32,000 nt of DNA from Gemmata obscuriglobus (GTDB lineage Bacteria; Planctomycetota; Planctomycetia; Gemmatales; Gemmataceae), in NCBI RefSeq assembly GCF_008065095.1, contig NZ_CP042911.1, positions 5,160,001 through 5,192,000 of the forward strand, read 5' to 3'. Positions 20-27,803 of this stretch are shown piece after piece. Every line of letters begins with the position of its first letter. The stretch's first letter is position 1. Both the position numbers and the translations under genes were made by a program. The notes beneath the pieces are model-generated. The model was not told the origin of the DNA. It saw only the letters and a program-made list of their open reading frames with translations, and searched no databases.

Positions 20-406
20 TCAATCGCCAGACTCGCCGACTGAGGGAAAAAAAGCCCGCCGGCAGGCGGTGCAGTAGGCCGACGGTTCGCTCCACTCCGC
101 TTCCCCGACCCGCGTGGTGAGGATGCGTGGTTCGGGATCACCGGGTGATGGCGTCTGTCGGCACCCCGGGCATTGTTGTCTCTCGGCGGGTATGGTGCCG
201 GCCGCTTGTTTCTGGAGAGCTTGGCGGAGCAGTTCGCGTGACACCGTTTGGCCCAACTGGACGACCAGTTCTTCGAGTTCCTCGAACGTCGTGCCCCACG
301 GCGGCCCATCGGGTCCGAACAGCCTCTCGACCAACGTTTTGGCCACCCCGTCCAGGTACGCCTTATTCGCTGCGACTTCGGGACGAGCGTTATTGGGGCG
401 TGCCAT
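20..406 (-). pseudogene. ISKra4-like transposase, N-terminal fragment only (128 aa, no catalytic part)
   Basis: ORF track 20..406. ATG 406 is preceded by GGAG. The pattern TFEELEELVVQLG...CPGC...(~35 aa)...YCTACRRAFFP recalls the N-terminal zinc-finger region of ISKra4-family transposases. It stops after 128 aa and lies just beyond the last attC-like site (526-616). Confidence 0.45.
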
Positions 407-1674: not shown

Positions 1675-2230
1675 GTGCTTTTGGTGAGCCGTGGGTGCCG
1701 GAATCTGCTCCCGGCGCCACGCCACGGCCACGGCGGCCACCGCTCCGACCACCAGCCCCACGAGCAGCCCCTGTGACACGCCCGAACCGATGCCCACGTG
1801 CAGAGGGCTGAACCACGTCCCCACCGGCCGAAAATGCTCGGCGGGAGTACCCGGGGGCCGCCGCTCCGAGGAGATAACCGCCCCCGCCGCCGGCACACGC
1901 CCCGGCGAGGCCACTCAGGCACACGATCAGGTATGCCCGCAGGACCGACACGGCGCCCCCCAGACGCAGCCCCCGGATGAGCACGGTGACCGACCCGATG
2001 CACGCCGCGCCGCACAGGGCGGAGCCGCCCACCATGTCCGCCCACGCATGCTTGCGTGGGGCGTCGAACTCGGGCGAGCTGTACCGGATTAGCCCGGGGT
2101 AGCAACCCGGGAAGAAGCCGGGAGCGAACGTGTCCGTGAACGCAAAGACGATCTCCCCGACCTGCATGAACGCAAACCCGCCGGCCACGGCAGCAGCGAA
2201 CCCCAGTGCCACACAGCCGAGCCACCGCAT
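1639..2230 (-). pseudogene. multi-pass membrane protein cassette, apparently frameshifted
   Basis: The 5' part is frame 1652..2230 (MRWLGCVALGFAAAVAGGFAF...), with GC-rich third positions down to about 1850. After that, only frame 1639..1914 keeps GC3 and a hydrophobic helix (GVSQGLLVGLVVGAVAAVAVAW), and it ends in the usual attC tail AEPGAAPDTAI. The span is 592 nt, which is not a multiple of 3. Confidence 0.45.
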
Positions 2231-2250
2231 CCGCGCCTCCGGCTGGTCTT

Positions 2251-2341
2251 GCCGAACGTAAAGCTCACCTGCACCGCCATCACACGATGAGCGGTGCGTC
2301 CCGAATCAGCCGGCGGTGTCAGGTGCAGCGCCGGGTTCGGC
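2251..2341 (-). repeat. attC-like site, class A
   Basis: Class A palindrome: gccgaac..cacctgcaccgcc|loop|ggcggtgTcaggtg..gttcggc. Confidence 0.8.
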
Positions 2342-2698
2342 TCGCTCACGTCCGCGGTTCCGGGGCACACGCCCCGCGCCGCGCATCTGCGGATGCCCGC
2401 GGCACCGATGCGGCCGAGCGGAGCACCACCGACCCCACGCGCCGTGTCGCGGCCCATCGGAGGCCGGCCACCACCGCACCTCGCGGCGATGAGCCGCGCC
2501 GACCACCGGCGGGCACCACGCGGAGCACCCCCGACCCGAACCGCCGTGTCCCCACCCGCATCCCGGCCACGCCCAACCGCACCTCGCGGCGACGAGCCGC
2601 GCCCGCGCCCACCGGCACTCTGCGGAGCCCGACGCGCGGGGTTCACCCACGCGGACCACACGCACACCGCCGCACGGGCGCTCCAGCACGCGAGGGTG
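2342..2698 (-). repeat. ORF-less repeat cassette family R (2 internal units)
   Basis: Head, then 2 x ~102-nt unit (gcggagcaccaccgac..ccgtgtcc..cgcacctcgcggcgRYgagccgcgcc), then the long tail. There is no frame conserved with other copies. Confidence 0.8.
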
Positions 2699-2789
2699 GC
2701 CGAACAAATAGCTCACCTGCACCGCCCCCTCCCAGGGAGCGATGCGTCACAAACTCGCGGGCGGTGTCAGGTGCAGCGCCGGGTTCGGC
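2699..2789 (-). repeat. attC-like site, class A
   Basis: Class A palindrome with a variant loop (ccctcccagggagcgatgcgtcacaaactcgcg). Confidence 0.8.
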
Positions 2790-3147
2790 TCGATGCCCTC
2801 GGCGGTTCCGAGGTGGCACGCTCAGCATCGCGGCTCCGCGGAAGCCCGCCCACCGTCGCGGCCGAGCGGAGCACCACCGACCCACCCGCCGTGTCCCGGC
2901 CCATTGGAGGCTGGCACCAACCGCACCTGGCGGCGACGAGCCGCGCCAACCACCAGCGGGCGCCACGCGGAGCACCACCGACCCGAACCACCGTGTCCCC
3001 ACGCGCCGCCGGCCACGCCCAACCGCACCTCGCGGCGGCGAGCCGCGCCAGACACGACCGGCACCCCGCGGAACCCGACACAAGGGTTTCACCACCGCGG
3101 ACCACACGCCTCGCACCGCCGCACGCGCACTCATGCACGCGATGGTT
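2790..3147 (-). repeat. ORF-less repeat cassette family R (2 units)
   Basis: Same architecture as 2342-2698. Confidence 0.8.
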
Positions 3148-3238
3148 GCCGAACGAACAGCTCACCTGCACCGCCATCATACCGTCAGCGTTGCGTCCCA
3201 GACCAGATGGCGGTGTCAGGTGCAGCGCCGGGTTCGGC
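3148..3238 (-). repeat. attC-like site, class A
   Basis: Class A palindrome: gccgaac..cacctgcaccgcc|loop|ggcggtgTcaggtg..gttcggc. Confidence 0.8.
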
Positions 3239-3596
3239 TCGCTCACCACCGCGGTTCCGGGCCACGGGCCGAGCGTCGCGCATCCGCGGAGCCCGTGCCA
3301 CCGGTGCGGGCGTGCGGAGCACCACCGACTCGACGCACCGTGTCGCGGCCCACCGGAGGCCACCCACCACCGCCACGCGCGGCGATGAGCCGCGCCCGGC
3401 ACCCACGGGCACCACGCGGAGCACCACCGACTCGAACCGCCGTGTCCCCACGCGCCCCCGGCCACGCCCACCCGCACCTCGCGGCGACGAGCCGCGCCAG
3501 CCCCGCCCGGCCCCACGCGGAGCACCACACGTGGGGTTCACCCACGCGGACCACACGCACACCACCGCCGCACGCGCGCTCAGGAACGCGAGGGTG
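3239..3596 (-). repeat. ORF-less repeat cassette family R (2 units)
   Basis: Same architecture as 2342-2698. Confidence 0.8.
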
Positions 3597-3687
3597 GCCG
3601 AACATAAAGCTCACCTGCACCGCCATCATACCGTCAGCAACGCGTCACAAATCAGCGGGCGGTGTCAGGTGCAGCGCCGGGTTCGGC
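3597..3687 (-). repeat. attC-like site, class A
   Basis: Class A palindrome: gccgaac..cacctgcaccgcc|loop|ggcggtgTcaggtg..gttcggc. Confidence 0.8.
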
Positions 3688-3704
3688 ATCTGCGCAGCCC
3701 CCAG

Positions 3705-4136
3705 CTACCCGCCGTTGACCTCGGCCGCCACGACCCGACCATCCGGGCCGAAGTGAACGTACAGGAAGGCGTCGTCGAAGCCGTATGGGCCGAGGCCGCT
3801 CCAGCATCCCAGCCAGTACACCCACGTCTCCGGGTGGTCCAGTCGAACGCCGTACCCGTCCACCGGCCCCCGCGGGTCACGCGACGGTGGCTCGCCCTCG
3901 CCCAGCAGTTCCCGCACACGCTCTTTGGGCGTCCCAGCGGGCAGGTGGCGGATGGCGTCACGGGCCATCGGCCCCCGCCCCCGCTCGTCGGCGGCCGCCC
4001 ACGCCGCCGGGCTGAATGGGCGGTCGTCGAACGGGTCGAGATACCGGTCGAGCGCGACGAACCCGGCCACGCACCCGCGGGCCAACAGCAACGCGGCCAG
4101 GGCGAGCAAGCCGACGACACACTTCCACCGCCGCAT
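3705..4136 (-). CDS. secreted/lipoprotein-like cassette protein (143 aa)
   Basis: ATG 4136 has GAGG 9 nt upstream and lies 18 nt after attC 4154-4244. The N-terminus MRRWKCVVGLLALAALLLARGC is signal-peptide-like with a Cys. PAGTPKERVRELLGEGEP weakly recalls BamE/SmpA-OmlA small lipoproteins. It has its own stop. Confidence 0.7.
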   Translation of the reverse strand: MRRWKCVVGLLALAALLLARGCVAGFVALDRYLDPFDDRPFSPAAWAAADERGRGPMARDAIRHLPAGTPKERVRELLGEGEPPSRDPRGPVDGYGVRLDHPETWVYWLGCWSGLGPYGFDDAFLYVHFGPDGRVVAAEVNGG

Positions 4137-4153
4137 CTCGCACTGCCTCTGTT

Positions 4154-4244
4154 GCCGAACGAACAGCTCACCTGCACCGCCATCACCGGATGAGCGATGC
4201 GATCCAAACTACATGGCGGTGTCAGGTGCAGCGCCGGGTTCGGC
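4154..4244 (-). repeat. attC-like site, class A
   Basis: Class A palindrome, identical to 12271-12361. Confidence 0.8.
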
Positions 4245-4251
4245 GTCTGGG

Positions 4252-4707
4252 CTACCCCCGCCAGACCACCTGCACGCCGGCAAGCTCGATGCCGCCTGGC
4301 CCGGCGGCGAGTTGCCCGGCCTTGCGGTTAAGCAGGGCCGGCCCGAAGCACTCGCCGAACCCGACCCGCTCCCCGCAGTGCAGGAAGCTGACGTACGGCC
4401 AGCGGTAGAACGACCCCCGCACCTTCTCGGGGGCGTCTCGCCAGCCGAGCAACCGGCCGGGCCGGCCGCACTCCCGCACCCCGGCGTCCGTCACCTCCCA
4501 CCACTGGAAGGTGCTGCCGTGGTCGAACTGCCCGCGCTCCAGGTCGCCGTCCGCGACTTGGTAGATGTACAGCGCGTCGAACGCGGCGAGGTCGGCGACG
4601 CGGACCCCGAATGAGTCGGCCACGTAGTCGAGGAAACGCGGCGTGCGGTGCCACGACCAGACGTCGGCCAGTGCCTCAGCGACCGAACGCGACGGCTGCG
4701 GCTCCAT
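4252..4707 (-). CDS. hypothetical cassette protein family X (151 aa), copy 1 of 3
   Basis: ATG 4707 follows CGAGGG, 21 nt after attC 4728-4818. Its own TAG lies 7 nt before attC 4154-4244. The protein is identical to 10840..11295 and 12369..12824. Confidence 0.75.
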   Translation of the reverse strand: MEPQPSRSVAEALADVWSWHRTPRFLDYVADSFGVRVADLAAFDALYIYQVADGDLERGQFDHGSTFQWWEVTDAGVRECGRPGRLLGWRDAPEKVRGSFYRWPYVSFLHCGERVGFGECFGPALLNRKAGQLAAGPGGIELAGVQVVWRG

Positions 4708-4727
4708 CGGTCGAGCGCCCTCGGGTG

Positions 4728-4818
4728 GCCGAACAAACAGCTCACCTGCACCGCCACCATCGGATGAGCGATGCGTCCCAGATCAGATGGCGGTGTCAGG
4801 TGCAGCGCCGGGTTCGGC
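4728..4818 (-). repeat. attC-like site, class A
   Basis: Class A palindrome, identical to 12845-12935. Confidence 0.8.
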
Positions 4819-5151
4819 TTCTGCGCCCCGCGCCGCGCATCCGCGGAGCCCGCCCACCGACGCGGCCGAGCGGAGCCACCACCGACCCGCACCACCGTGC
4901 CGCGGCACACCGGTGGCCGCCCACCACCGACACCCGCGGCGATGAGCCGCGCCCGGCACCCACGGGCACCACGCGGAGCACCACCGCCACGAACCGCCGT
5001 GTCCCCCCCCGCCACCGGCCACGCCCACCGCAAGCTCGCGGCGACGAGCCGCGCCGGTCGCACTCGGGCACCACGCGGAGCCCGATACTCGCCGTTTACC
5101 ACCGCGGACCACACGCACACCACCGCACGCGCCATCGAGCGGCCTCGGGGT
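4819..5151 (-). repeat. ORF-less repeat cassette family R (2 units, short tail)
   Basis: Short tail type (ttctgcgccccgcgccgcgcatccgcggagc..). About the first 75 nt are identical to 12936-13267. Confidence 0.8.
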
Positions 5152-5242
5152 GCCGAACAACAAGCTCACCTGCACCGCCACGTCCCGAGCCGCGATGCGT
5201 CCCGAATCAGCGGGCGGTGTCAGGTGCAGCGCCGGGTTCGGC
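5152..5242 (-). repeat. attC-like site, class A
   Basis: Class A palindrome: gccgaac..cacctgcaccgcc|loop|ggcggtgTcaggtg..gttcggc. Confidence 0.8.
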
Positions 5243-5251
5243 GCGACCTCC

Positions 5252-5809
5252 TCAACCGAACTTGGCCTTCCGCTCCACAGGGGTCAGGCACCGATAGCAT
5301 ACCTCGCGCTGCGGGTCATCCTCGCGTGCCAGCGTCGGGGCACCGCACCGCTGGCATAGGTAGGCACGCCGCCCGACCTCCCACGGCACCGACGGGTCGA
5401 ATCCGCCCCGCTCTGCGTAGTACCGGGCGGCCCGCACCACCAGCTCCACGTCGCGGCAGATGTGCCGCTCACGGTCCCCGAACCCCTGCTCGATGAGCGG
5501 GCCATAGATCTCCACGTCCCGGTCGCCGCCGGCCGGGTCCTGGAACCGCCGCTGCAGGTAGCCGCCGTGGGTGCCCGCCAGCCAGTACACCCCGTCGCCA
5601 CCGGACACCTCGAACCGCTCGCAGAACTGGTCGTATTCGTGGCACGCCTCGTCCTCGGTCGGCCACAGGATCAGGATGGGGTGGGTCCGGCGGTCCAGCC
5701 GGCGGATCGCGGTCTCGATTGTCTCCCAGGACGGACGCACGGCCTTCTCCCTGCGATCCCGTCGCCCGTCCTGCAGGTAGGAGAGCGTTTCCAGCACCTT
5801 CGCGTGCAT
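5252..5809 (-). CDS. hypothetical cassette protein (185 aa) with C-terminal CxxC..CxxC pair
   Basis: ATG 5809 follows GAGGGGGAG, 17 nt after attC 5826-5917. CQRCG...CYRC lies near the C-terminus. Its own stop is 9 nt before attC 5152-5242. Confidence 0.75.
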   Translation of the reverse strand: MHAKVLETLSYLQDGRRDRREKAVRPSWETIETAIRRLDRRTHPILILWPTEDEACHEYDQFCERFEVSGGDGVYWLAGTHGGYLQRRFQDPAGGDRDVEIYGPLIEQGFGDRERHICRDVELVVRAARYYAERGGFDPSVPWEVGRRAYLCQRCGAPTLAREDDPQREVCYRCLTPVERKAKFG

Positions 5810-5825
5810 CGGCTCCCCCTCGGTT

Positions 5826-5917
5826 GCCGAACAATGAAGCTCACCTGCACCGCCATCATCGGATGAGCAATGCGTTCCAAGTCAGCCGGCGGTGTCAGGT
5901 GCAGCGCCGGGTTCGGC
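5826..5917 (-). repeat. attC-like site, class A
   Basis: Class A palindrome, 92 nt. Confidence 0.8.
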
Positions 5918-5924
5918 TCTGTCC

Positions 5925-6302
5925 TCAGCGCGGTCGGCGCATGACGACGAGAGTGCGTCCTCCGCTCGCGGTGCCCAAGCTCACGACCAGTTGAGCGTAG
6001 GCCGGGTCGCCCTGCAGCCGTACTTCTTCGATCACCGTGCCGTCGTCGTCCTGTGCCCGACAGATCATCGACCCACCTGGACCGAGACATGAACCGCCGG
6101 CAAGGGATTTGCGGTATGGTCCCGGCAATCGGGGCGGGGCCACGACCGCCCACCCATCGTATCCGGCCACGACGGCTTCCAGGGAGACGAACGGTCGCTC
6201 CTGTCGTGTGGCCGATTCCGCGTGCCGGCCCCAGGGTGACAGCCAATAACCGGCACACCCCGCACCGAGTAACACGACGAACACAAGCCACCGCACCCGC
6301 AT
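5925..6302 (-). CDS. small lipoprotein-like cassette protein (125 aa)
   Basis: ATG 6302 follows AAGGGGG, 18 nt after attC 6320-6410. MRVRWLVFVVLLGAGC is a lipobox-like signal. Its own stop is 7 nt before attC 5826-5917. The track ORF 5925..6674 extends upstream through the attC and is not used. Confidence 0.65.
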   Translation of the reverse strand: MRVRWLVFVVLLGAGCAGYWLSPWGRHAESATRQERPFVSLEAVVAGYDGWAVVAPPRLPGPYRKSLAGGSCLGPGGSMICRAQDDDGTVIEEVRLQGDPAYAQLVVSLGTASGGRTLVVMRRPR

Positions 6303-6319
6303 CCGATCCCCCTTCCGGT

Positions 6320-6410
6320 GCCGAACATAAAGCTCACCTGCACCGCCATCACCGGATGAGCGGTGCGTCCCAGAACAGATGGCGGTGTCAGGTGCAGCGC
6401 CGGGTTCGGC
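6320..6410 (-). repeat. attC-like site, class A
   Basis: Class A palindrome: gccgaac..cacctgcaccgcc|loop|ggcggtgTcaggtg..gttcggc. Confidence 0.8.
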
Positions 6411-6746
6411 TTCTGCGCTGGGATGTGCGGTTCCGCGGAGCCCGCGCCCGCGTCGCGGTTCCGCGGAGCCACCACCGACCCGCACCACCGTGCCGCGGCA
6501 CACCGGGGGCCACCCACCACGGCACCGCGCGGCGATGAGCCGCGCCGCCCACCGACCGGTATCGGCGGAGCACCACCGATCCGACGCGCCGTGTCCCCAC
6601 GCGCCTCCGCCCACGCCCAACCGCACCTCGCGGCGATGAGCCGCGCCAGACACGACCGGCACCACGCGGAGCACGACACGCGAGGTTCACCCATGCGGAC
6701 CACACGCTCAGCGCCGCCGCACGCGTGCTCACGCGCCCTCTGGGTG
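6411..6746 (-). repeat. ORF-less repeat cassette family R (2 units, short tail)
   Basis: Same architecture. The head carries an SD-like AGAGGG. Confidence 0.8.
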
Positions 6747-6836
6747 GCCGAACAGAAAGCTCACCTGCACCGCCAAGATGGAGTGAGCGACACAACGGCG
6801 GCTGATGGCGGTGTCAGGTGCAGCGCCGGGTTCGGC
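6747..6836 (-). repeat. attC-like site, class A (minor loop type)
   Basis: Class A stems with the minor loop family (aagatggagtgagcgacacaacggcggctgat). Confidence 0.8.
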
Positions 6837-7196
6837 TCGCTCGCCTCCGCGGTTCCGGGCGACACGCCGAGCTTGGCGCATCCGCGGAACCCGCGGCACC
6901 GGTGCGGCCGAGCGGAGCCCCACCGACTCGAATCGCCGTGTCGCGGCCCACCGGTGGCCACCCATCACCGCACCTCGCGGCGACGAGCCGCGCCCGCCCT
7001 GACGCGCGCCACGCGGAGCACCACCGACCCGAACCGCCGTGTCCCCACCCGCACCCCGGCCACGCCCAACCACACCTCGCGGCGACGAGCCGCGCCCGCC
7101 CCGACCGGCACCACGCGGAGCCACCACCGACGCGTGGGCGTCACCTTCGCGGACCACACGCCCACCACCGCACGCGCGATCCAGAACGCGAAGGTG
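6837..7196 (-). repeat. ORF-less repeat cassette family R (2 units)
   Basis: Same architecture. Confidence 0.8.
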
Positions 7197-7287
7197 GCCG
7201 AACATAAAGCTCACCTGCACCGCCATCACACGATGAGCGGTGCGTCCCAACTCAGCCGGCGGTGTCAGGTGCAGCGCCGGGTTCGGC
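7197..7287 (-). repeat. attC-like site, class A
   Basis: Class A palindrome: gccgaac..cacctgcaccgcc|loop|ggcggtgTcaggtg..gttcggc. Confidence 0.8.
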
Positions 7288-7643
7288 TCGATGCCCTCGG
7301 CGGTTCGGGGTCGCACGCCGAGCGCCGCGCATCCGCAGAGCCCGCGGCACCGACGCGGCTGGGCGGAGCACCACCGACCCGACGCGCCGTGTCCCGGCAC
7401 ACCGGAGGCCGCCCACCACCGCACCTCGCGGCGATGAGCCGCGCCGACCACCCACGGGCCACACGCGGAGCACCACCGACCCGCACCGCCGTGTCCCGAC
7501 ACATCGGAGGCCACGCCCAACCGCAAGCTCGCGGCGATGAGTCGCGCCAGACCCGACCGGCACCACGCGAAGCCCGACGCGCGCGGTTCACCACCGCGGA
7601 CCACACGCACACCGCCGCACGCGCGCTCCTGCACGCGATGGTT
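7288..7643 (-). repeat. ORF-less repeat cassette family R (2 units)
   Basis: Same architecture. Confidence 0.8.
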
Positions 7644-7734
7644 GCCGAACATACAGCTCACCTGCACCGCCATCATCGGATGAGCGGTGCGTCACAAGTC
7701 AGCGGGCGGTGTCAGGTGCAGCGCCGGGTTCGGC
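7644..7734 (-). repeat. attC-like site, class A
   Basis: Class A palindrome: gccgaac..cacctgcaccgcc|loop|ggcggtgTcaggtg..gttcggc. Confidence 0.8.
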
Positions 7735-8075
7735 TTCGTCGCGGGCAGTTGCGGTTCCGCGGAGCCCGCGCCCGCGTCGCACATCCGCGGAGCCACCACC
7801 GACCCGCACCACCGTGCCGCGGCACACCGGTGGCCGCCCACCACCGACACACGCGGCGATGAGCCGCGCCGACCACCGGTGGGCACCACGCGGAGCACCA
7901 CCGACCCGCACCGCCGTGTCCCCATGCGCGGCTGGCCACGCCCAACCACACCTCGCGGCGACGAGCCGCGCCCGCCCCGACCGGCACCACGCGGAGCCAC
8001 CACTGACGAGCGGGGCTTACTCACGCGGACCACACGCCCACCACCACCGCACGCCCGCTCCAGCACGCGAAGGTG
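7735..8075 (-). repeat. ORF-less repeat cassette family R (2 units, short tail)
   Basis: Same architecture. Confidence 0.8.
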
Positions 8076-8166
8076 GCCGAACGTAAAGCTCACCTGCACC
8101 GCCATCACACGATGAGCGGTGCGTCACAACTCAGCGGGCGGTGTCAGGTGCAGCGCCGGGTTCGGC
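8076..8166 (-). repeat. attC-like site, class A
   Basis: Class A palindrome: gccgaac..cacctgcaccgcc|loop|ggcggtgTcaggtg..gttcggc. Confidence 0.8.
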
Positions 8167-8607
8167 CTCTTGGGCCGCCACTCTGCCGGACGCGAGTAGT
8201 TGCCGGAGAGCATGGCAACCGCTCATGGTCGCCTCGCGAAGCTCGACGGCGAACCCATCGAGTGTGGTCGCCGACCGTACCGGCAGCCCGAGTTGATCGG
8301 GGAGATACGATTCGGCATCCCATACAGCACCACGAACGACTTGGCTGGCTGCGCCCGTCTGGATCTTCCACTGATCTTCAGACCAGTCCACCGTTAGCCG
8401 GAGATTGTAGCGGCGGCAGACGGCAGTATCGACCTCGACCCCGATCTCTAAATACCGCCAGGCGTGCATACTGATGCGGATATACGGCTCATGTTGGTCG
8501 GCGACGAGGCCACCATCGGCGAGGTCGTTCGCCAACTGCAGGAGCGTGTGTTGGGCCTGCGTTAACGCACCCAAGAACGCGACGACGTTGCGGCTGCCCT
8601 CGTCCAC
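8131..8607 (-). CDS. hypothetical cassette protein (158 aa including attC tail)
   Basis: ORF track 8131..8607. GTG 8607 follows AGAGG, 18 nt after attC 8625-8715. It reads into attC 8076-8166, ending AEPGAAPDTAR. Confidence 0.65.
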   Translation of the reverse strand: MDEGSRNVVAFLGALTQAQHTLLQLANDLADGGLVADQHEPYIRISMHAWRYLEIGVEVDTAVCRRYNLRLTVDWSEDQWKIQTGAASQVVRGAVWDAESYLPDQLGLPVRSATTLDGFAVELREATMSGCHALRQLLASGRVAAQEAEPGAAPDTAR

Positions 8608-8624
8608 CGCTTACGCCTCTGGTT

Positions 8625-8715
8625 GCCGAACAAGTAGCTCACCTGCACCGCGAGGTCCCGGGCCGCGGTGCGTCATAAGCCGCGCGGCGGTGTCAGGTGC
8701 AGCGCCGGGTTCGGC
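8625..8715 (-). repeat. attC-like site, class A
   Basis: Class A palindrome with a variant loop (gaggtcccgggccgcggtgcgtcataagccgc). Confidence 0.8.
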
Positions 8716-8725
8716 ATGCCGCGCC

Positions 8726-9187
8726 TCACCACGTCAGCCGCTCGATCCGCACCAGCGGGGCGGCCGCGACCATCCCGACACCGGCCGCCGCGAGGGCGGC
8801 CACCATGCCCACCCGGCGGCGGGTCCACCGGCCCGACGTGTGGGCATCCACAGCCAGCCCGACCCCGACAGCGCCCGCGGCGGCGAACGTTAGGTTGTAC
8901 GCCAGGGCGGCCTGGCGGGTGATCCGGCCGGTGCGGGCCATCCGATCGGTCGGCAGGCGGAACGGGGCGGTCTCCAAGGCGGACGGGATAAGTCTGACGT
9001 CGTCCGACTCCCACCGGTCGGCTCGCCAGATTGCCGGGAACCCGAACAACTCGACGATCTCCGCCCCCGGCGGTTGATCCGGCCACCGGCCGCCGATCGA
9101 CGGGGCCCACGACCAGACGTTCAGAAGCAGCAGGACGGCCGCCGTGGCGACCGTGGCGAGCTTCGCCTCCCCAGTCCATCGCCGCAT
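8726..9187 (-). CDS. membrane protein cassette (153 aa)
   Basis: ATG 9187 follows GGGAGGG, 28 nt after attC 9215-9305. Hydrophobic segments are ATVATAAVLLLLNVW and MVAALAAAGVGMVAAA. It has its own stop. The first 20 residues of track ORF 8726..9247 (MMAVQVSFMFGGSWRPREGQ) are the translated attC arm (MMAVQVSFMFG) plus the short leader, so I trimmed the start to ATG 9187. Confidence 0.6.
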   Translation of the reverse strand: MRRWTGEAKLATVATAAVLLLLNVWSWAPSIGGRWPDQPPGAEIVELFGFPAIWRADRWESDDVRLIPSALETAPFRLPTDRMARTGRITRQAALAYNLTFAAAGAVGVGLAVDAHTSGRWTRRRVGMVAALAAAGVGMVAAAPLVRIERLTW

Positions 9188-9214
9188 CTGGCCCTCCCGT
9201 GGTCGCCAACTACC

Positions 9215-9305
9215 GCCGAACATAAAGCTCACCTGCACCGCCATCATACAGTCAGCAATGCGTCACAAACTAGCGGGCGGTGTCAGGTGCAGCGCCGGGT
9301 TCGGC
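9215..9305 (-). repeat. attC-like site, class A
   Basis: Class A palindrome: gccgaac..cacctgcaccgcc|loop|ggcggtgTcaggtg..gttcggc. Confidence 0.8.
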
Positions 9306-9538
9306 TTCTGCGCGGGCAGTTGCGATTCCGCGGAGCCCGCGCTCGTACCGCGCATCGCGGAGCCACCACCGCCGACCCGCGCTACCGTGTCCCACCCGCA
9401 CCCGGCCGCGACCAACCGCACCTCGCGGCGACGAGCCGCGCCCGCAACCACCGGCACCACGCGGAGCCCGACATACGGGCTTTACCACCGCGGACCACAC
9501 GCCCACGCGCCGCACGGGCGCTCATGCGCCCTCTGGGT
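9306..9538 (-). repeat. ORF-less repeat cassette family R (1 unit)
   Basis: A single unit, 233 nt in total. The head has AGAGGGCGCATGAGCGC. Confidence 0.8.
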
Positions 9539-9629
9539 GCCGAACATACAGCTCACCTGCACCGCCATCACCGGATAAGCGGTGTGTCACAAATCAGCCG
9601 GCGGTGTCAGGTGCAGCGACCGGTTCGGC
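9539..9629 (-). repeat. attC-like site, class A
   Basis: Class A palindrome with a variant 3' spacer (cagcgaccggttcggc). Confidence 0.8.
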
Positions 9630-10046
9630 ATGCCTTTGGAGCCAACCCCGCGCCTCCGCGACAACCGACCGGCCCCAAGCTGCCACCGCCGCCTCGCCGT
9701 ACAACCCGTCCCACGTCACTTCGTGAGGGCGGCCCGTTAGGTCGCCGTAGTCGACGTAGAGCCCGTACAGGTGGTGGTAGTCGTGGGACTCACACGCATA
9801 CCGCCACGGATACGACCGCATCTGGAGCTGCACGAGGTAGGGCCATCGCACCTCGGCCTCGATCACCTCCAACCCCGCCCACGGGTCCACTAGCCCGCTG
9901 GCGATGCGCGACAGGTGATGCCGTAACAGCAGCCACGCCGCCGCATCCGCACGGGCAAGGCCCTCCGCGCTGAGCGTTTCCAAGCCGCGATTGGCCGCGG
10001 CGAGGGTTGCTTGCGCCTCGTTGATCGACAGTGCTCCAACTTCCAC
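9594..10046 (-). CDS. hypothetical cassette protein (150 aa including attC tail)
   Basis: GTG 10046 follows CGAGG, 19 nt after attC 10065-10155. It is in frame with track ORF 9594..10157 and ends AEPVAAPDTAG inside variant attC 9539-9629. Confidence 0.6.
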   Translation of the reverse strand: MEVGALSINEAQATLAAANRGLETLSAEGLARADAAAWLLLRHHLSRIASGLVDPWAGLEVIEAEVRWPYLVQLQMRSYPWRYACESHDYHHLYGLYVDYGDLTGRPHEVTWDGLYGEAAVAAWGRSVVAEARGWLQRHAEPVAAPDTAG

Positions 10047-10064
10047 GCCGCGAGACCTCGGGTT

Positions 10065-10155
10065 GCCGAACAAAGAGCTCACCTGCACCGCCATCACCGG
10101 ATGAGCGGTAAGTCCCAAGTCAGATGGCGGTGTCAGGTGCAGCGCCGGGTTCGGC
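10065..10155 (-). repeat. attC-like site, class A
   Basis: Class A palindrome: gccgaac..cacctgcaccgcc|loop|ggcggtgTcaggtg..gttcggc. Confidence 0.8.
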
Positions 10156-10160
10156 ATGCC

Positions 10161-10727
10161 TTATCCTCTCCGCCGACTTGGCGGAAGCGGTGGCTCCTCA
10201 CTCTTCGGGTCTGGCTCCTCGTCGTCGGCGAGCGGCATGCCCATGACAAACCTGCCTGACTCCCAGACCGACGACTCCAGATCTCGCGGTTTGCGAGCGA
10301 GCCGCGGATCGACAGCCACGCACTCCCCGAGGGACGCATGCGTCTGAGCGATCTCGATGCTTGAGCAGAAGAACACCTTCTGCCGGCACTGGCCGCAGAA
10401 GCGGACGCCCTCCTCGGCCGTTGGCTGGAGTTGCTCCCACTGCTTCGGACAGCGGAACCGGAACTCGACCCCACAGCCCTCGACCGGGGCACGACTGATC
10501 GACGCGAGCCAGTCAGGATCAACACCGAGACTGGCCTCCCGCAGGCGACCCTGCATCGCCTCCCGGCACGGATCGGAGGGGGCAAGCGCGGCGAATTCGC
10601 ACTCGGCGCGGAGGAAGCCGCCTCCGGCCCGGTCGTGTTCGTCCAGCCAGTCGGCGTAGACCAATCGCGGCAGGTCGTCCGTCGGGGCAGCTCGAATCGC
10701 TGCCAGGAATGCAGCCTCGTCGCTCAT
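10161..10727 (-). CDS. TIGR02996 (repeat-companion, Gemmata-type) N-terminal domain protein (188 aa)
   Basis: ATG 10727 follows AGAGGG. The N-terminus MSDEAAFLAAIRAAPTDDLPRLVYADWLDEHDR matches the TIGR02996 signature as I remember it. A Cys-rich middle region follows (CPKQWEQL..CGQCRQKVFFC). It has its own stop. Confidence 0.8.
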   Translation of the reverse strand: MSDEAAFLAAIRAAPTDDLPRLVYADWLDEHDRAGGGFLRAECEFAALAPSDPCREAMQGRLREASLGVDPDWLASISRAPVEGCGVEFRFRCPKQWEQLQPTAEEGVRFCGQCRQKVFFCSSIEIAQTHASLGECVAVDPRLARKPRDLESSVWESGRFVMGMPLADDEEPDPKSEEPPLPPSRRRG

Positions 10728-10740
10728 ACGCCCTCTGGTT

Positions 10741-10832
10741 GCCGAACAATGAAGCTCACCTGCACCGCCATCATCGGATGAGCGGTGCGTCCCGCATCAG
10801 CCGGCGGTGTCAGGTGCAGCGCCGGGTTCGGC
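10741..10832 (-). repeat. attC-like site, class A
   Basis: Class A palindrome, 92 nt. Confidence 0.8.
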
Positions 10833-10839
10833 GTCTGGG

Positions 10840-11295
10840 CTACCCCCGCCAGACCACCTGCACGCCGGCAAGCTCGATGCCGCCTGGCCCGGCGGCGAGT
10901 TGCCCGGCCTTGCGGTTGAGCAGGGCCGGCCCGAAGCACTCGCCGAACCCGACCCGCTCCCCGCAGTGCAGGAAGCTGACGTACGGCCAGCGGTAGAACG
11001 ACCCCCGCACCTTCTCGGGGGCGTCTCGCCAGCCGAGCAACCGGCCGGGCCGGCCGCACTCCCGCACCCCGGCGTCCGTCACCTCCCACCACTGGAAGGT
11101 GCTGCCGTGGTCGAACTGCCCGCGCTCCAGGTCGCCGTCCGCGACTTGGTAGATGTACAGCGCGTCGAACGCGGCGAGGTCGGCGACGCGGACCCCGAAT
11201 GAGTCGGCCACGTAGTCGAGGAAACGCGGCGTGCGGTGCCACGACCAGACGTCGGCCAGTGCCTCAGCGACCGAACGCGACGGCTGCGGCTCCAT
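10840..11295 (-). CDS. hypothetical cassette protein family X (151 aa), copy 2 of 3
   Basis: The protein is identical to 4252..4707. The one nucleotide difference I saw is synonymous (gttaag vs gttgag on +). The track fuses it to the upstream cassette (10840..11685) because attC 11316-11406 has no stop in that frame. Confidence 0.75.
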   Translation of the reverse strand: MEPQPSRSVAEALADVWSWHRTPRFLDYVADSFGVRVADLAAFDALYIYQVADGDLERGQFDHGSTFQWWEVTDAGVRECGRPGRLLGWRDAPEKVRGSFYRWPYVSFLHCGERVGFGECFGPALLNRKAGQLAAGPGGIELAGVQVVWRG

Positions 11296-11315
11296 CGGTC
11301 GAGCGCCCTCGGGTG

Positions 11316-12361: not shown

Positions 12362-12368
12362 GTCTGGG

Positions 12369-12824
12369 CTACCCCCGCCAGACCACCTGCACGCCGGCAA
12401 GCTCGATGCCGCCTGGCCCGGCGGCGAGTTGCCCGGCCTTGCGGTTAAGCAGGGCCGGCCCGAAGCACTCGCCGAACCCGACCCGCTCCCCGCAGTGCAG
12501 GAAGCTGACGTACGGCCAGCGGTAGAACGACCCCCGCACCTTCTCGGGGGCGTCTCGCCAGCCGAGCAACCGGCCGGGCCGGCCGCACTCCCGTACCCCG
12601 GCGTCCGTCACCTCCCACCACTGGAAGGTGCTGCCGTGGTCGAACTGCCCGCGCTCCAGGTCGCCGTCCGCGACTTGGTAGATGTACAGCGCGTCGAACG
12701 CGGCGAGGTCGGCGACGCGGACCCCGAATGAGTCGGCCACGTAGTCGAGGAAACGCGGCGTGCGGTGCCACGACCAGACGTCGGCCAGTGCCTCAGCGAC
12801 CGAACGCGACGGCTGCGGCTCCAT
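12369..12824 (-). CDS. hypothetical cassette protein family X (151 aa), copy 3 of 3
   Basis: The protein is identical to 4252..4707, with one synonymous difference (cccgcac vs cccgtac on +). It is flanked by attCs identical to those of copy 1. Confidence 0.75.
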   Translation of the reverse strand: MEPQPSRSVAEALADVWSWHRTPRFLDYVADSFGVRVADLAAFDALYIYQVADGDLERGQFDHGSTFQWWEVTDAGVRECGRPGRLLGWRDAPEKVRGSFYRWPYVSFLHCGERVGFGECFGPALLNRKAGQLAAGPGGIELAGVQVVWRG

Positions 12825-12844
12825 CGGTCGAGCGCCCTCGGGTG

Positions 12845-12935: not shown

Positions 12936-13267
12936 TTCTGCGCCCCGCGCCGCGCATCCGCGGAGCCCGCCCACCGACGCGGCCGAGCGGAGCCACCACC
13001 GACCCGACCCGCCGTGTCCCGGCACACCGGAGGCCACGCCCACCGCCACACGCGGCGACGAGCCGCGCCAACCACACACGGGCACCACGCGGAGCACCAC
13101 CGAACCGAAACGCCGTGTCCCGGCACACCGGAGGCCACGCCCACCGCACCTCGCGGCGACGAGCCGCGCCAGCCCCAACCGGCACCACGCGAAGCCCGAC
13201 ACCCGGGGTTCACCACCGCGGACCACACGCCCACCGCCGCCCGCGCGCCCTGATGCACGCGAGGGTG
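12936..13267 (-). repeat. ORF-less repeat cassette family R (2 units, short tail)
   Basis: Same architecture. Confidence 0.8.
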
Positions 13268-13768: not shown

Positions 13769-13921
13769 GCCGAACCAGGAGCTGAGCTGCAAGCCGCCCC
13801 TCTCAGGGCGGTCTCCCCTTGCTCCCGCGACGGCTTGTCAGCTCCAGCGGGGGGGTCGGCCGACGGCCGCCTCCTTCCGCCAGAGGATGAGTGAGCGTTG
13901 CAGCTCAGCTCCTGGTTCGGC
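13769..13921 (-). repeat. attC-like site, class B composite (153 nt)
   Basis: The inner 92-nt attC homologue is 13769-13860: gccgaac-cagga-gctgagctg-caagccgcc / loop / gacggcttg-T-cagctc-C-agc-ggggg-gGtcggc (inner box carries a point change). It is followed by a 36-nt spacer and a perfect inverted copy of the first 25 nt (cttgcagctcagctcctggttcggc). Confidence 0.7.
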
Positions 13922-14094
13922 CGCCGCCGGATGAGCTCAGCCCACCGGGGACATCGCACGGCGGGAGATCACCATGCGACCTCAGGCCGCTCGGATCGGC
14001 GGGCCCTCGCCGGTCGCCTTCACCAGGGGGGAGGTGGCGACAACCTTACGACCGCCCGCCGATCCGCGGCGCTTGCAACCACCTCACGGCGGCG
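13922..14094 (-). repeat. ORF-less structured cassette S (173 nt), copy 1 of 4
   Basis: There is no ORF above 13 codons in the cassette direction. It has a 17-bp stem, gccgcggatcggcgggc / gcccgccgatccg(a)gcggc, enclosing the nested hairpin gtcgcc-acc..ggt-gaa-ggcgac, and the ends cgccgcc/ggcggcg pair. It is always attached to a class B attC. Confidence 0.7.
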
Positions 14095-14185
14095 GCCGAA
14101 CGAACAGCTCACCTGCACCGCCACATCCCGAGCAGCGATGCGTCATAAATCAGCGGGCGGTGTCAGGTGCAGCGCCGGGTTCGGC
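14095..14185 (-). repeat. attC-like site, class A
   Basis: Class A palindrome: gccgaac..cacctgcaccgcc|loop|ggcggtgTcaggtg..gttcggc. Confidence 0.8.
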
Positions 14186-14538
14186 TCGCTCACCACCGCG
14201 GTTCCGGGCCACGGGCCGAGCGTCGCGCATCCGCGGAGCCCGTGCCACCGGTGCGGGCGTGCGGAGCACCACCGACTCGACGCACCGTGTCGCGGCCCAC
14301 CGGAGGCCACCCACCACCGCCACGCGCGGCGATGAGCCGCGCCCGGCACCCACGGGCACCACGCGGAGCACCACCGACTCGAACCGCCGTGTCCCCACGC
14401 GCCCCCGGCCACGCCCACCCGCACTTCGCGGCGACGAGCCGCGCCAACCACCGACCGGCACCACGCGGAGCCACCACCGTCTGATGCCCCGCGGACCACA
14501 CGCCCACCGCCGCCCGCGCGCTCCAGAACGCCCGGGTG
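14186..14538 (-). repeat. ORF-less repeat cassette family R (2 units)
   Basis: Same architecture. The tail half is near-identical to 3239-3596. Confidence 0.8.
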
Positions 14539-14629
14539 GCCGAACAGTAAGCTCACCTGCACCGCCATCATCGGATGAGCGGTGCGTCCCAAACTCGCTG
14601 GCGGTGTCAGGTGCAGCGCCGGGTTCGGC
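14539..14629 (-). repeat. attC-like site, class A
   Basis: Class A palindrome: gccgaac..cacctgcaccgcc|loop|ggcggtgTcaggtg..gttcggc. Confidence 0.8.
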
Positions 14630-14649
14630 GTGCCTTTGCTGCCCAGCGA

Positions 14650-15048
14650 CTACTCGCGCCACGGCTTGGACAGGCTGCCGTTCCAAGGCAGGAACAGGAA
14701 TCCTTGCGATGCGTCCTGCAGCGCGCCCTGAACCTCCATGAGCGTGTTGATCTCGTCCAGCGCCGCGTCCAGGTCGTCGATGCTGATCTCGAACCGGGCG
14801 GCGCACTCCCGCATGGCGGCCTCGTGCGGGGTGCCCTCGCCGATCTCGGTCGCCTCGGCCGCGACGTGCGGGCCGGCGGCCAGGCGGACGCGGAACCAGC
14901 GGTTGGGGAAACCAGGGATGGCCGGCCGCCCGGCGGTGAGTTCGTCGCCGCGCCGGGTGACAGTCAGCCCGTACCCGGCGAACGCCTTCGCAGCCGCGTC
15001 GAGGTCGCACGCGCCGGCCCGGAAGAACACCATGCAGCCGTCCGCCAC
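14650..15048 (-). CDS. hypothetical cassette protein (132 aa)
   Basis: GTG 15048 lies 7 nt after GGAGGG and 17 nt after attC 15065-15155. Its own TAG is at 14650. Confidence 0.7.
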   Translation of the reverse strand: MADGCMVFFRAGACDLDAAAKAFAGYGLTVTRRGDELTAGRPAIPGFPNRWFRVRLAAGPHVAAEATEIGEGTPHEAAMRECAARFEISIDDLDAALDEINTLMEVQGALQDASQGFLFLPWNGSLSKPWRE

Positions 15049-15064
15049 CCCGAATCCCTCCGGT

Positions 15065-15155
15065 GCCGAACAATAAGCTCACCTGCACCGCCATCATACC
15101 GTCAGCGGTGCGTCGCAGTATAGCGGGCGGTGTCAGGTGCAGCGCCGGGTTCGGC
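15065..15155 (-). repeat. attC-like site, class A
   Basis: Class A palindrome: gccgaac..cacctgcaccgcc|loop|ggcggtgTcaggtg..gttcggc. Confidence 0.8.
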
Positions 15156-15487
15156 TTCTGCGCCCACCATCGCGGTTCCGCGGAGCCCGCGCCCGCGTTG
15201 CGCATCCGCGGAGCCACCACCGACCCCGCGCACCGTGTCGCGGCACACCGGTGGCCGCCCAACACCGCCACACGCGGTGATGAGCCGCGCCTGCTACCAC
15301 CGGCACCACGCGGAGCGCCACCGACCCGAACCGCCGTGTCCCCACGGCACCGCCGGCCACGCCCAACCTCCACTCGCGGCGACGAGCCGCGCCCGTCGCA
15401 CTCGGGCACCACGCGAAGCCCGACGCGCGGGGTTCACCCACGCGGACCACACGCCTACCGCCGCGCGCATCCATGCACGCGATGGTA
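15156..15487 (-). repeat. ORF-less repeat cassette family R (2 units, short tail)
   Basis: Same architecture. Confidence 0.8.
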
Positions 15488-16347: not shown

Positions 16348-16703
16348 TCGCTCACGTCCGCGGGTCCGGGTCACGCGCCGAGCGATGCGGCTCCGCGGAG
16401 CCCGGGCCACCGGTGCGACCCGGCGGAGCACCACCGGCTCCCCGCGCCGTGTCCCGGCACACCGAGGGCCACCCACCACCGCACCTCGCGGCGATGAGCC
16501 GCGCCCACCACCCACGGGCACCACGCGGAGCACCACCGACCCGAACCACCGTGTCCCACGATACCACCAGCCACGCTCACCGCAAGCTCGCGGCGACGAG
16601 CCGCGCCCGTCGCACTCGGGCACCACGCGGAGCCCGACACGTAGGGTTCACCCACGCGGACCACACGCACACCGCCGCACGCGCGATCCAGAACGCGAGG
16701 GTG
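16348..16703 (-). repeat. ORF-less repeat cassette family R (2 units)
   Basis: Same architecture. It is followed on the low-coordinate side by attC 16257-16347 and preceded by class B attC 16704-16856. Confidence 0.8.
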
Positions 16704-16856
16704 GCCGAACCAGGAGCTGAGCTGCAAGCCGCCCCTCTCAGGGCGGTCTCCCCTTGCTCCCGCGACGGCTTGTCAGCTCCAGCGGGGGGTTCGGCCGACG
16801 GCCGCCTCCTTCCGCCAGAGGGTGAGTGAGCCTTGCAGCTCAGCTCCTGGTTCGGC
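16704..16856 (-). repeat. attC-like site, class B composite (153 nt)
   Basis: Built as 13769-13921. The inner attC 16704-16795 has an intact gttcggc box. Confidence 0.7.
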
Positions 16857-17029
16857 CGCCGCCGGATCCGCTCAGCCCACCGGGGACATCGCACGGCGGG
16901 AGAACACCATGCGACCTCAGGCCGCTCGGATCGGCGGGCCCTCGCCGGTCGCCTTCACCAGGGGGGAGGTGGCGACAACCTTACGACCGCCCGCCGATCC
17001 GCGGCGCTTGCAACCACCTCACGGCGGCG
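16857..17029 (-). repeat. ORF-less structured cassette S, copy 2 of 4
   Basis: Same element as 13922-14094, with a few substitutions. Confidence 0.7.
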
Positions 17030-17120: not shown

Positions 17121-17479
17121 TCGCTCACGTCCGCGGTTCCGAGGTGGCACGCTCAGCATCGCGGCTCCGCGGAAGCCCGCCCACCGTCGCGGCCGAGCGG
17201 AGCACCACCGACCCACCCGCCGTGTCCCGGCCCACCGGAGGCCGGCACCAACCGCACCTGGCGGCGACGAGCCGCGCCAACCACCAGCGGGCGCCACGCG
17301 GAGCACCACCGACCCGAACCACCGTGTCCCCACGCGCCGCCGGCCACGCCCAACCGCACCTCGCGGCGGCGAGCCGCGCCAACCACCAGCAGGCCACACG
17401 CGGAGCCCGACACCCGGGGTTCACCCACGCGGACCACACGCCCACTACCGCCGCACGCGCGCTCCTGCACGCGATGGTT
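17121..17479 (-). repeat. ORF-less repeat cassette family R (2 units)
   Basis: Same architecture, closely related to 2790-3147. Confidence 0.8.
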
Positions 17480-21372: not shown

Positions 21373-21810
21373 TTCTGCGCGGGCCGTTGCGGTTCCGCGG
21401 AGCCCGCGCTCGTACCGCGCATCCGCGGAGCCACCACCGACCCGCACCACCGTGTCGCGGCCCACCGGTGGCCGCCCAACACCGCACCTCGCGGCGATGA
21501 GCCGCGCCAGACACCCACGGGCACCACGCGGAGCACCACCGACCCCACCCGCCGTGTCCCGATGCACCGCCGGCCACACCCAACCGCCACCTCGCGGCGG
21601 TGAGCCGCGCCAGACCCGATCGGCACCACGCGAAGCACCACCGACCTGAACCGCCGTGTCCGCACCCGCTCCCGGCCGCGCCCACCGCACCTCGCGGCGG
21701 TGAGCCGCGCCCGCCACCCACGGGCACCACGCGGAGCCCGACGCGCGGGCGTCACCTTCGCGGACCACACGCCCACCGCCGCCGCACGCGCGATCATGCA
21801 CCGTTGGGTT
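21373..21810 (-). repeat. ORF-less repeat cassette family R (3 units)
   Basis: The gRYgagccgcgcc motif starts at about 21496, 21599 and 21699, giving a period of 100-103 nt. Confidence 0.8.
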
Positions 21811-21900: not shown

Positions 21901-22236
21901 TTCTGCGCCCACCGTCGCGGTTCCGCGGAGCCCGCGCCCGCGCCGCGCATCCGCGGAGCCACCACCGACCCGCACCACCGTGCCGCGGCACACCGGTGGC
22001 CGCCCACCACCGACACCCGCGGCGGTGAGCCGCGCCCGCCAACCACGGGCACCACGCGGAGCACCACCGACCCGCACCACCGTGTCCCCACCCACACCGG
22101 GCCACGACCACCCGCACCTCGCGGCGGCGAGCCGCGCCAACCACCAGCAGGCCACACGCGGAGCCCGACACCCGGGGTTCACCACCGCGGACCACACGCC
22201 CACCGCCGCCCGCGCGCCCTGATGCACGCGAGGGTG
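21901..22236 (-). repeat. ORF-less repeat cassette family R (2 units, short tail)
   Basis: Same architecture. Confidence 0.8.
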
Positions 22237-23480: not shown

Positions 23481-23816
23481 TCGCGCACGTCCGCGCCGCG
23501 CATCCGCGGAAGCCCGCCCACCGGTGCGGGCGGGCGGAGCACCACCGACCCCGCGCGCCGTGTCCCGGCCCACCGAGGGCCACCCACCACCGCACCTCGC
23601 GGCGATGAGCCGCGCCGACCACCGGCGGGCACCACGCGGAGCACCACCGACCTGAACCGCCGTGTCCCAACGCATCGGAGGCCACGCCCAACCGCACCTC
23701 GCGGCGATGAGCCGCGCCAGCCACGATCGGTATCACGCGGAGCACGACGCGCGAGGTACACCCACGCGGACCACACCGTCAGCGCCGCCGCACCCGCGCT
23801 CCTGCACGCGAGGGTT
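23481..23816 (-). repeat. ORF-less repeat cassette family R (2 units)
   Basis: Same architecture. Confidence 0.8.
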
Positions 23817-26859: not shown

Positions 26860-26861
26860 TT

Positions 26862-27275: not shown

Positions 27276-27293
27276 TCTTGCGCCCTCTGGGTT

Positions 27294-27384: not shown

Positions 27385-27511
27385 TTCTTCGCTCACCGTC
27401 GCGCATCTGCGTAGCCCGCGCCCGCATGGCGCATCCGCAGCGACCGCGCCCACCGCCGCGCATCCGCGGAGCGGGACCGGCACGCCGGTGTGAGTCCCCG
27501 GCCATAATAAC

Positions 27512-27778: not shown

Positions 27779-27803
27779 CTTCGCGCCTCCGTCTCCTTCT
27801 GCC

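Follow-up and report, generated by a model that had tools for sequence, protein, structure and literature searches.

The integron array and its R cassettes

We analysed a stretch of 32,000 nt from the chromosome of Gemmata obscuriglobus (contig NZ_CP042911.1, positions 5,160,001 to 5,192,000), referred to below as the window, which is the reverse complement of approximately 2.828-2.860 Mb of CP025958.1 (8.99 Mb). One of its protein cassettes is found unchanged on that chromosome and on a contig of the UQM 2246 draft assembly. The window is part of a chromosomal integron array, and 22 of its ~59 cassettes, about 37%, belong to a single family of short cassettes without an open reading frame (ORF), here called R. 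The R cassettes contain one to three tandem units of about 102 nt, and they very probably represent a non-coding, selected and Gemmata-specific cassette family which spreads by cassette mobility and recombination. A literature search combining Gemmata with integron or attC returned no description of this array.

The cassettes are delimited by attC halves, of which 58 right and 57 left ones were found by a pattern search of the window (+ strand pattern GCCGAAC..AGCTCACCTGCACCGCC ... GGTGTCAGGTGCAGCGCCGGGTTCGGC). The sites are near-identical, 90-92 nt long (typically 91 nt), and share one orientation. Folded as single-stranded DNA (ssDNA), they adopt the canonical hairpin of integron cassettes. 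The R box (GCCGAAC/GTTCGGC) measures 7 bp, the spacers of 5 nt are unpaired on both sides, two bulges of one base each (the extrahelical bases) interrupt the L stem, both in its + strand 3' arm, and the loop is variable; the DNA fold z-scores are -2.9 to -4.6. Textbook core sites read RYYYAAC (R'') and GTTRRRY (R'), and the R' core found here, GTTCGGC, is a single position (C) off this consensus. Because the extrahelical bases lie on the + strand 3' arm, the + strand is the bottom strand, and since the clear protein ORFs of the window are on the minus strand, the array is read on the minus strand. Each R copy is an attC-bounded cassette flanked by GTTCGGC (R') and GCCGAAC (R''); it starts directly past the R' core of one attC, ends with its own attC, and is oriented like the minus-strand-coded protein cassettes. 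A separate attC subtype for R was considered and rejected: one loop subtype recurs with one R subfamily, and the other sites match those of protein cassettes.

A search with two unit motifs identified 21 complete R cassettes and one cut by the end of the window. Their lengths are 233, 256, 332-360 and 438 nt, and they sum to 7,507 nt, which is 23.5% of the window. Tandem Repeats Finder detected a period of 101-103 nt (76-83% match) within the cassettes and, where R plus attC recurs in runs, a period of 449-451 nt. The alignments showed a head of ~75 nt, one to three tandem units (100-103 nt each) and one of two tails. The original prediction had described 22 copies filling about 23% of the window, a 100-103-nt unit present one, two or three times, a head, two conserved blocks per unit, a 6-bp hairpin and two tail types, and all of this was borne out. 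The head carries the invariant GCGTGTGGTCCGC. Each unit runs in the order GCTCCGCGTGGTGCC, a variable segment, GGCGCGGCTC-RY-CGCCGCGAGGTGCGG, a variable segment, GGGACACGG, a variable segment and TCGGTGGTG. The short tail has the form ..GCGCAGAA, and the long tail the form ..CGGAACCGCGGA..GAGCGA. The invariant blocks, GCGTGTGGTCCGC, GGCGCGGCTC-RY-CGCCGCG, GGGACACGG and TCGGTGGTGCTCCGC, recur every ~100 nt. A perfect 6-bp G+C inverted repeat, CGCGGC-N5-GCCGCG, is present in every module, and the motifs occur on one strand only in all copies.

The locus at 2342-3596 consists of three R cassettes (2342-2698, 2790-3147 and 3239-3596) with two attC sites between them. All are on the minus strand, as are all the copies listed below. 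The cassette at 3239-3596 (358 nt) illustrates the layout: its head occupies 3524-3596, unit 1 3423-3523, unit 2 3321-3422 and the tail 3239-3320, and its two inverted repeats lie at 3480-3496 and 3378-3394. The attC sites of the three cassettes, also on the minus strand, are at 2251-2341 (91 nt, with the 7-bp R box, the 5-nt unpaired spacer and two extrahelical bases), 2699-2789 and 3148-3238, respectively. Two units and a long tail are found at 2342-2698 (357 nt), 2790-3147 (358 nt), 6837-7196 (360 nt), 7288-7643 (356 nt), 14186-14538 (353 nt, 93% identical to 3239-3596), 16348-16704 (357 nt), 17121-17479 (359 nt), 25144-25501 and 25592-25949 (358 nt each) and 26041-26396 (356 nt), while the two-unit copy at 23481-23816 (336 nt) has a truncated long tail. 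Two units and a short tail are found at 4819-5151 (333 nt), 6411-6746 (336 nt), 7735-8075 (341 nt), 12936-13267 (332 nt), 15156-15487 (332 nt) and 21901-22236 (336 nt). The copies predicted to hold one unit, 9306-9538 (233 nt, short tail) and 30640-30895 (256 nt, long tail), and three units, 21373-21810 (438 nt, short tail), do so; the single unit of 30640-30895 is a hybrid, consistent with a deletion between units 1 and 2. The copy cut by the window end (31697-32000) is complete in the neighbouring sequence (333 nt, L033:9564-9896). The array extends at least 10 kb beyond position 32000 and carries four further R copies there (CP025958.1 2818782-2839381, L033), giving 26 copies within 42 kb.

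R cassettes had been reported to occur singly or in runs. Runs are present, yet R-R adjacencies are no more frequent than chance (9 versus 7.96 expected, P = 0.38); the copies are placed at random along the array, and a clustering of R into runs was rejected. The composition of R is strongly asymmetric, with C 46.9, G 30.3, A 15.8 and T 7.1% on the + strand (77% G+C, ~23% A+T), as compared to C 36.5, G 32.0, A 17.1 and T 14.4% in the rest of the window. The asymmetry claimed in the original prediction therefore holds for the whole family, although its hand count for positions 2421-2480 was wrong, the true values being C 30, G 17, A 10 and T 3. An in-unit GGTTCGG resembles the R' core, and a pseudo-attC or integrase site was considered on this account and rejected, since its GTT is not conserved among copies.

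Coding potential of the R cassettes

No reading frame is conserved among the R copies. The head-to-tail anchor distance takes nine values from 264 to 272 nt with an even spread of residues modulo 3 (7/11/11, chi-square P = 0.58), and in about 20-45% of units the spacings of sub-intervals are 1 nt longer or shorter. The ungapped alignment blocks contain no consistent synonymous excess in any frame on either strand. In R the GC content at codon positions 1/2/3 is 0.80/0.78/0.75, and every frame is flat in this respect (0.75-0.81), whereas 15 genuine ORFs from cassettes of the window have the usual 0.71/0.56/0.81. Six-frame translations of R had no match in Pfam. When 5.8 billion proteins were searched by word index, the most ORF-like frame matched a single one, which is annotated in Gemmata sp. 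JC717 as a partial hypothetical protein and is itself an R cassette; an exhaustive phmmer search (HMMER) of 1.84 billion protein representatives found no relative of this frame. The R cassettes are not protein-coding and the present copies are not evolving as a gene, in agreement with the earlier claim that no frame is consistent among them. With no frame conserved among copies they are ORF-less cassettes, and they lack the properties of protein-coding genes.

In the UQM 2246 draft genome, ORFs of 255-489 aa have been annotated on the T-poor strand (L002:2836-3603, 9715-10884 and 13821-15290). They run across several R cassettes plus attC sites of a contig equivalent to the R runs of the window. 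These ORFs are almost certainly artefacts, which arise because stop codons are scarce on the T-poor strand.

The modal anchor spacings of R (33, 27, 51 and 24 nt) and the modal unit of 102 nt are all multiples of 3, 4 of 29 copies keep one frame (..ARLIAAR..GDTAVRVGGAPRGA..) open across all anchors, and in the copy at 4819-5151 GAGG-N7-ATG stands ahead of this continuous frame. Such features would suit a decayed coding family, in which the ancestor encoded a protein of ~115 aa with 34-aa repeats (..ARLIAARCGGGWPPVGRDTVVRVGGAPRGA..) and most copies are frameshifted pseudogenes. We regard this history as very unlikely: the synonymous fraction in that frame is not raised (0.19-0.38 per block), third codon positions in the conserved blocks are invariant, GC at third positions is not raised, and the lack of relatives of the translation among the protein representatives also stands against it. 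Moreover, pseudogenes would not hold 96% block identity across species while the remaining sequence drops to 61%.

Distribution of the R family

The exact R-unit pattern was scanned against genomes, one per species. True R units were found in Gemmata algarum JC673 (nine contigs) and in the metagenome-assembled genome (MAG) Gemmata sp. SMAG_U3706, both of which carry the Gemmata attC, and the remaining ~19 matches were single chance matches in unrelated G+C-rich genomes. The G. obscuriglobus region was itself not among the scan matches and is presumably masked in that collection. Two further R copies are present in Gemmata sp. JC717, and R is abundant in the arrays of G. algarum and JC717 too. 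Metagenome contigs gave 18 matches, all of them chance matches in unrelated genes, and no R match was found in viral contigs, in plasmids (BLAST) or in two non-array regions of G. obscuriglobus (L035 and L037). Within the collections scanned, R occurs in four Gemmata genomes and nowhere but in attC-bounded cassettes. Many of the short-read contigs of G. algarum JC673 (L009, L013, L018, L020, L022 and L026, 292-431 bp) consist of one R fragment. R breaks Gemmata assemblies, so copy numbers taken from draft genomes are underestimates.

The unit was not found as a generic satellite: the true matches outside this genome all belong to attC-bounded Gemmata cassettes, with an attC accompanying them wherever the contig is long enough. 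Repetitive extragenic palindromic sequences, bacterial interspersed mosaic elements and miniature inverted-repeat transposable elements are short, G+C-rich, hairpin-bearing, non-coding and highly amplified substrates of homologous recombination. R differs from them: in the sequences covered it does not occur scattered over the genome, every copy lies between attC sites, and neither terminal inverted repeats nor target-site duplications belong to R itself. A genome-wide dispersed repeat of this kind was rejected, as the true matches are on contigs which carry attC or are too short to judge, and none is in the two non-array regions.

Conservation, age and recombination of R copies

Thirty two-unit R copies from three genomes were aligned over 321 columns. 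In 174 of these columns the base is conserved in at least 28 of the 30 copies, and the conserved columns fall into 53 runs, as compared to 80.2 +/- 4.5 when the column order is shuffled. The conserved columns have a mean pairwise identity of 96.4%, the other columns one of 60.6%. Conservation at the DNA or RNA level, as originally proposed, is thus evident and strongly block-wise. Whole R copies are 66-93% identical (most of them 66-85%), besides one identical adjacent pair, and those of G. obscuriglobus are as distant from each other as from G. algarum copies. The R family is old and diverged, and since the diverged copies each retain the same blocks, long-term purifying selection has acted on the nucleotide sequence. 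The beneficiary of such selection would be the host or the cassette itself.

The window has other duplicated cassettes, which encode proteins and share 99.6-100% identity. They lie at 4245-4727, 10833-11315 and 12362-12844 and at 27895-28318 and 28951-29374, and their duplications are recent, unlike the old R copies.

Recombination between R copies has left clear traces. The segment 4154-4889 is identical to 12271-~13006 and comprises an attC, a 483-nt protein cassette which is one of these recent duplicates, a second attC and the last ~70 nt of an R cassette (4819-4889 and 12936-~13006). Inside R the identity falls to 80-85%, and the breakpoint coincides with the R tail, so homologous recombination between R copies moves blocks of cassettes. 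The heads, variable segments and tails of R are mosaic because the copies recombine homologously. Unequal recombination between units seems to have produced the copies with one and three units. The copies at 25144-25501 and 25592-25949 are identical to each other and are recent duplicates, which shows that duplication of R is ongoing.

The abundance of R could also be a matter of drive. R would then be a selfish, functionless cassette whose blocks aid its own excision and reinsertion, by strand opening, pausing or hairpin extrusion near attC, an explanation that we consider rather unlikely. Its share of this array and its abundance in G. algarum and JC717 would fit, as would the small, non-coding and randomly scattered copies and the continuing duplication seen in the identical adjacent pair. 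The sense strand of R also has a higher G4Hunter mean (0.43) than other cassettes (0.12), but a canonical G-quadruplex motif is present in just 7 of 22 copies, and the G-quadruplex was rejected as a defining feature of R since its position is not conserved. Most copies are old, which is at odds with a recent burst. Since R cassettes have no attC subtype of their own, any drive would have to come from the payload, where the link from conserved blocks to recombination is purely putative.

RNA structure and regulatory signals

The original prediction had listed an extended structured non-coding RNA (ncRNA) among its candidates, and for this the alignments gave no covariation support. The RNAalifold covariation term was +0.24 for 17 cassettes and -1.1 kcal/mol for 30 cassettes, and the two consensus folds differ. 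In the 30-copy fold, 7 of 68 pairs had changed on both sides, as compared to 4.2 in shuffles (21 of 500 shuffles reach 7), and these changes lie mostly within the two tail alleles. Single-sequence folding was no better than shuffles (z-scores -0.44 and -0.06). With 80 distinct units and default parameters, the lone consensus element was the hairpin CGCGGC-N5-GCCGCG, which performs alike on the two strands (z-scores against column shuffles of -2.8 for the G-rich and -3.1 for the C-rich one). Its six pairs are invariant, hence silent on covariation, and the larger predicted folds shift between alignments. A RIBOSUM fold from RNAalifold, in which the hairpin halves pair with flanking conserved blocks, was set aside since the columns are invariant or vary on one side only. 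Mutual-information pairs from 65 units were likewise dismissed, as most of the top ones stem from the divergence of unit 1 from unit 2 and not from base pairing. R has no extended RNA fold with covariation support, and the 6-bp hairpin is its sole robust element. The polymorphisms in the hairpin loop are transitions only (A44/G36 and T59/C21), whereas 44 of the 55 variable columns include transversions; wobble pairing, a constraint on shape by a protein or transition bias could each produce this pattern.

A functional ncRNA, either a cis-acting module co-transcribed with the array or a processed small RNA (sRNA) or sponge whose repeated units would bind a protein or RNAs, after the manner of the sRNA-Xcc1 cassettes or of RsmZ and ToxI, is nevertheless a candidate, though in our view unlikely. 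The sense strand is G+T-rich (G 46.9, T 15.8, C 30.3 and A 7.1%), which permits G-U pairing on one strand only, and the transition-only loop positions fit wobble pairing with GGUGGYG in the RIBOSUM fold. Moreover, ORF-less cassettes that encode an sRNA are documented (PMC8876359). These points have to be set against the near-zero covariation term, the few and mostly allelic double-sided changes, the dependence of the consensus on the alignment and the unremarkable single-sequence folding. Rfam had no match in the whole window at gathering score, and at E <= 5 the region 2250-3700 gave just one chance miRNA match, which lies within an attC. A scan for tRNA and tmRNA found none.

No sigma-70-like promoter or intrinsic terminator was found in the R cassettes within 2000-10000, which also speaks against an ncRNA and bears on the idea that R is an expression module for its neighbours. 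In that case R would contain a non-sigma-70 promoter, for example of the extracytoplasmic function (ECF) type with the GGAAC of the long tail as -35 element, or it would act as a directional insulator or terminator, for example through a C-rich Rho loading site on antisense transcripts. Promoter-bearing ORF-less cassettes have been shown experimentally in Treponema (PMC6557892), and distal cassettes of large arrays need internal promoters for expression (PMC8876359). Within R, the long tail has the mostly conserved CGGAACCGCGGA, and the antisense strand keeps a C/G ratio of ~1.55 over 350 nt. By the sigma-70-like sites scanned, however, R is not a promoter-carrying ORF-less cassette, and its A+T content is just ~23%. 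The GGAAC is absent from short-tail copies and variable among long-tail copies, G at 30% is too high for a typical Rho utilization site, and no cassette family consistently follows R, all of which make an expression module improbable.

Other features of the array

The ORF at 20-406 (minus strand, 128 aa) is found on 8 contigs, including a second place on the same chromosome, and in the UQM 2246 draft it adjoins transposase genes (DDE and rve). The ORF probably belongs to an insertion sequence which marks or truncates the distal end of the array; because this ORF is multi-copy and lies next to transposase genes, the array probably ends near position 526.

A single attC of clearly different sequence type (GCCGAACCAGGAGCTGAGCTGCAAG...CTTGCAGCTCAGCTCCTGGTTCGGC) is present at 16705-16794 (minus strand); it follows the 235-nt cassette 16795-17029 and precedes the R cassette 16348-16704. 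In Gemmata sp. JC717, a third attC type stands ahead of an R cassette (L056:888-1000). The cassettes with these odd-type sites look like imports from other integrons. The interval 26860-27803 seemingly holds two cassettes with a degenerate attC between them, in which the right half is at 27358-27384 (GCGGTCCGGTGCAGCGCCGGGTTCGGC) and the canonical left half was not matched by the pattern; this may be a fused cassette.

The upstream continuation of the array (L033) contains cassettes for a ribosomal protein S21 homologue, Barstar, DUF6959 and several SMI1_KNR4/SUKH immunity-type proteins, and Imm1 and SMI1_KNR4 matches are present in the window region too. Polymorphic-toxin immunity proteins are abundant in the array.

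Discussion

Our results place R as a new, unusually amplified family of the genus Gemmata within the known class of ORF-less integron cassettes. The original prediction knew of no described cassette family like it; this stands for the family itself, while ORF-less cassettes as such are an already described class (PMC8876359 section 2.4.3; PMC6557892), which made up 13 of 63 cassettes in a study of oral metagenomes (PMC6557892). Like R, the ORF-less Treponema cassettes of that study are attC-bounded, without an ORF and arranged in an array in a common orientation. They are A+T-rich and have sigma-70-like promoters, whereas R is 77% G+C and shows no such motif, forms one family at ~37% of the cassettes, and has internal tandem modules and block-wise conservation across species. 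The sRNA-Xcc1 cassettes of Xanthomonas integrons, which encode a trans-acting sRNA, are also non-coding cassettes (PMC8876359, PMC6557892), but R has no sequence or structure match in Rfam, has no supported fold, and occurs in dozens of diverged copies per array.

Repeat systems outside integrons were considered as well. A clustered regularly interspaced short palindromic repeat (CRISPR) array was rejected, because the variable segments are homologous between copies and species, there are 1-3 units per locus, and no cas domains are present among the called genes. ToxI, the type III antitoxin made of tandem 36-nt repeats, and the RsmY and RsmZ sponges are repeat-built regulatory RNAs. R resembles them in its tandem modules with invariant motifs, which would suggest multivalent binding; this is a resemblance in a possible mode of action and not one of membership. 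The modules of R are ~3 times longer, and no toxin gene or constant neighbour follows R. Type III toxin-antitoxin repeats were rejected because the cassettes next after R are nearly all different ones, with an attC in between.

The evidence favours short invariant blocks at ~100-nt spacing as the selected feature of R, and not a protein or a large RNA fold. In the explanation that we prefer, R copies would be both multiplied and moved in two ways, by the integrase excising and reinserting cassettes and by RecA-type recombination between copies. The invariant blocks would be putative recognition sites for a sequence-specific partner, several per cassette and dozens per array. Such sites may be read on double-stranded DNA or on a single strand, which would be either a putative G/T-rich sense transcript made with the array or ssDNA, and for the inverted repeat this would mean a site for a dimer in the first case and a small hairpin in the second. 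The consequence would probably be local, affecting the expression or recombination of the array, although this is a guess. We put forward the recognition-site mechanism tentatively; it is the most economical one, yet somewhat less than evenly likely, and for the explanation as a whole we see an even chance.

Several points weigh against this explanation. The partner of the blocks is putative, and its recognition of them is read from the sequence. Sites on double-stranded DNA do not account for the strong strand asymmetry of R, which leans to a single-stranded form (transcript or ssDNA) or could be a mutational skew in unconstrained sequence. Selection at the level of the cassette, as in a selfish element, would conserve the blocks equally well. 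The multiple-of-3 spacings and the frame that is open in 4 of the 29 copies leave room for a coding ancestor, of which they may be a remnant. Finally, the system is known here as an attC array, with intI and attI lying outside the DNA covered, and so not as a complete integron.

A more specific proposal is that R is a regulatory or structural cassette which serves the integron. It would be a selected, genus-wide and multivalent platform for a host or integron factor, offering two to three modules in each cassette and dozens of cassettes in each array. As such it would control the folding and recombination of neighbouring attC sites or the reach of transcription along a very long array, and it would in addition supply the dispersed homology for RecA-type, integrase-independent duplication and deletion of cassette blocks. 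We consider this full role unlikely.

For practical work on these genomes, automatic annotation yields long spurious ORFs across the T-poor R repeats, and the same repeats split short-read Gemmata assemblies into contigs of 300-400 bp. Surveys put the non-coding share of integron cassettes at 10-20%, and to our knowledge almost none of these has a known role. In Gemmata, one non-coding family amounts to over a third of the cassettes in a very large chromosomal array and persists across species with its blocks under selection. This abundance, persistence and selection make R a tractable model for the roles of non-coding cassettes, for which the candidates here are expression control, recombination control, an RNA product and pure self-propagation.

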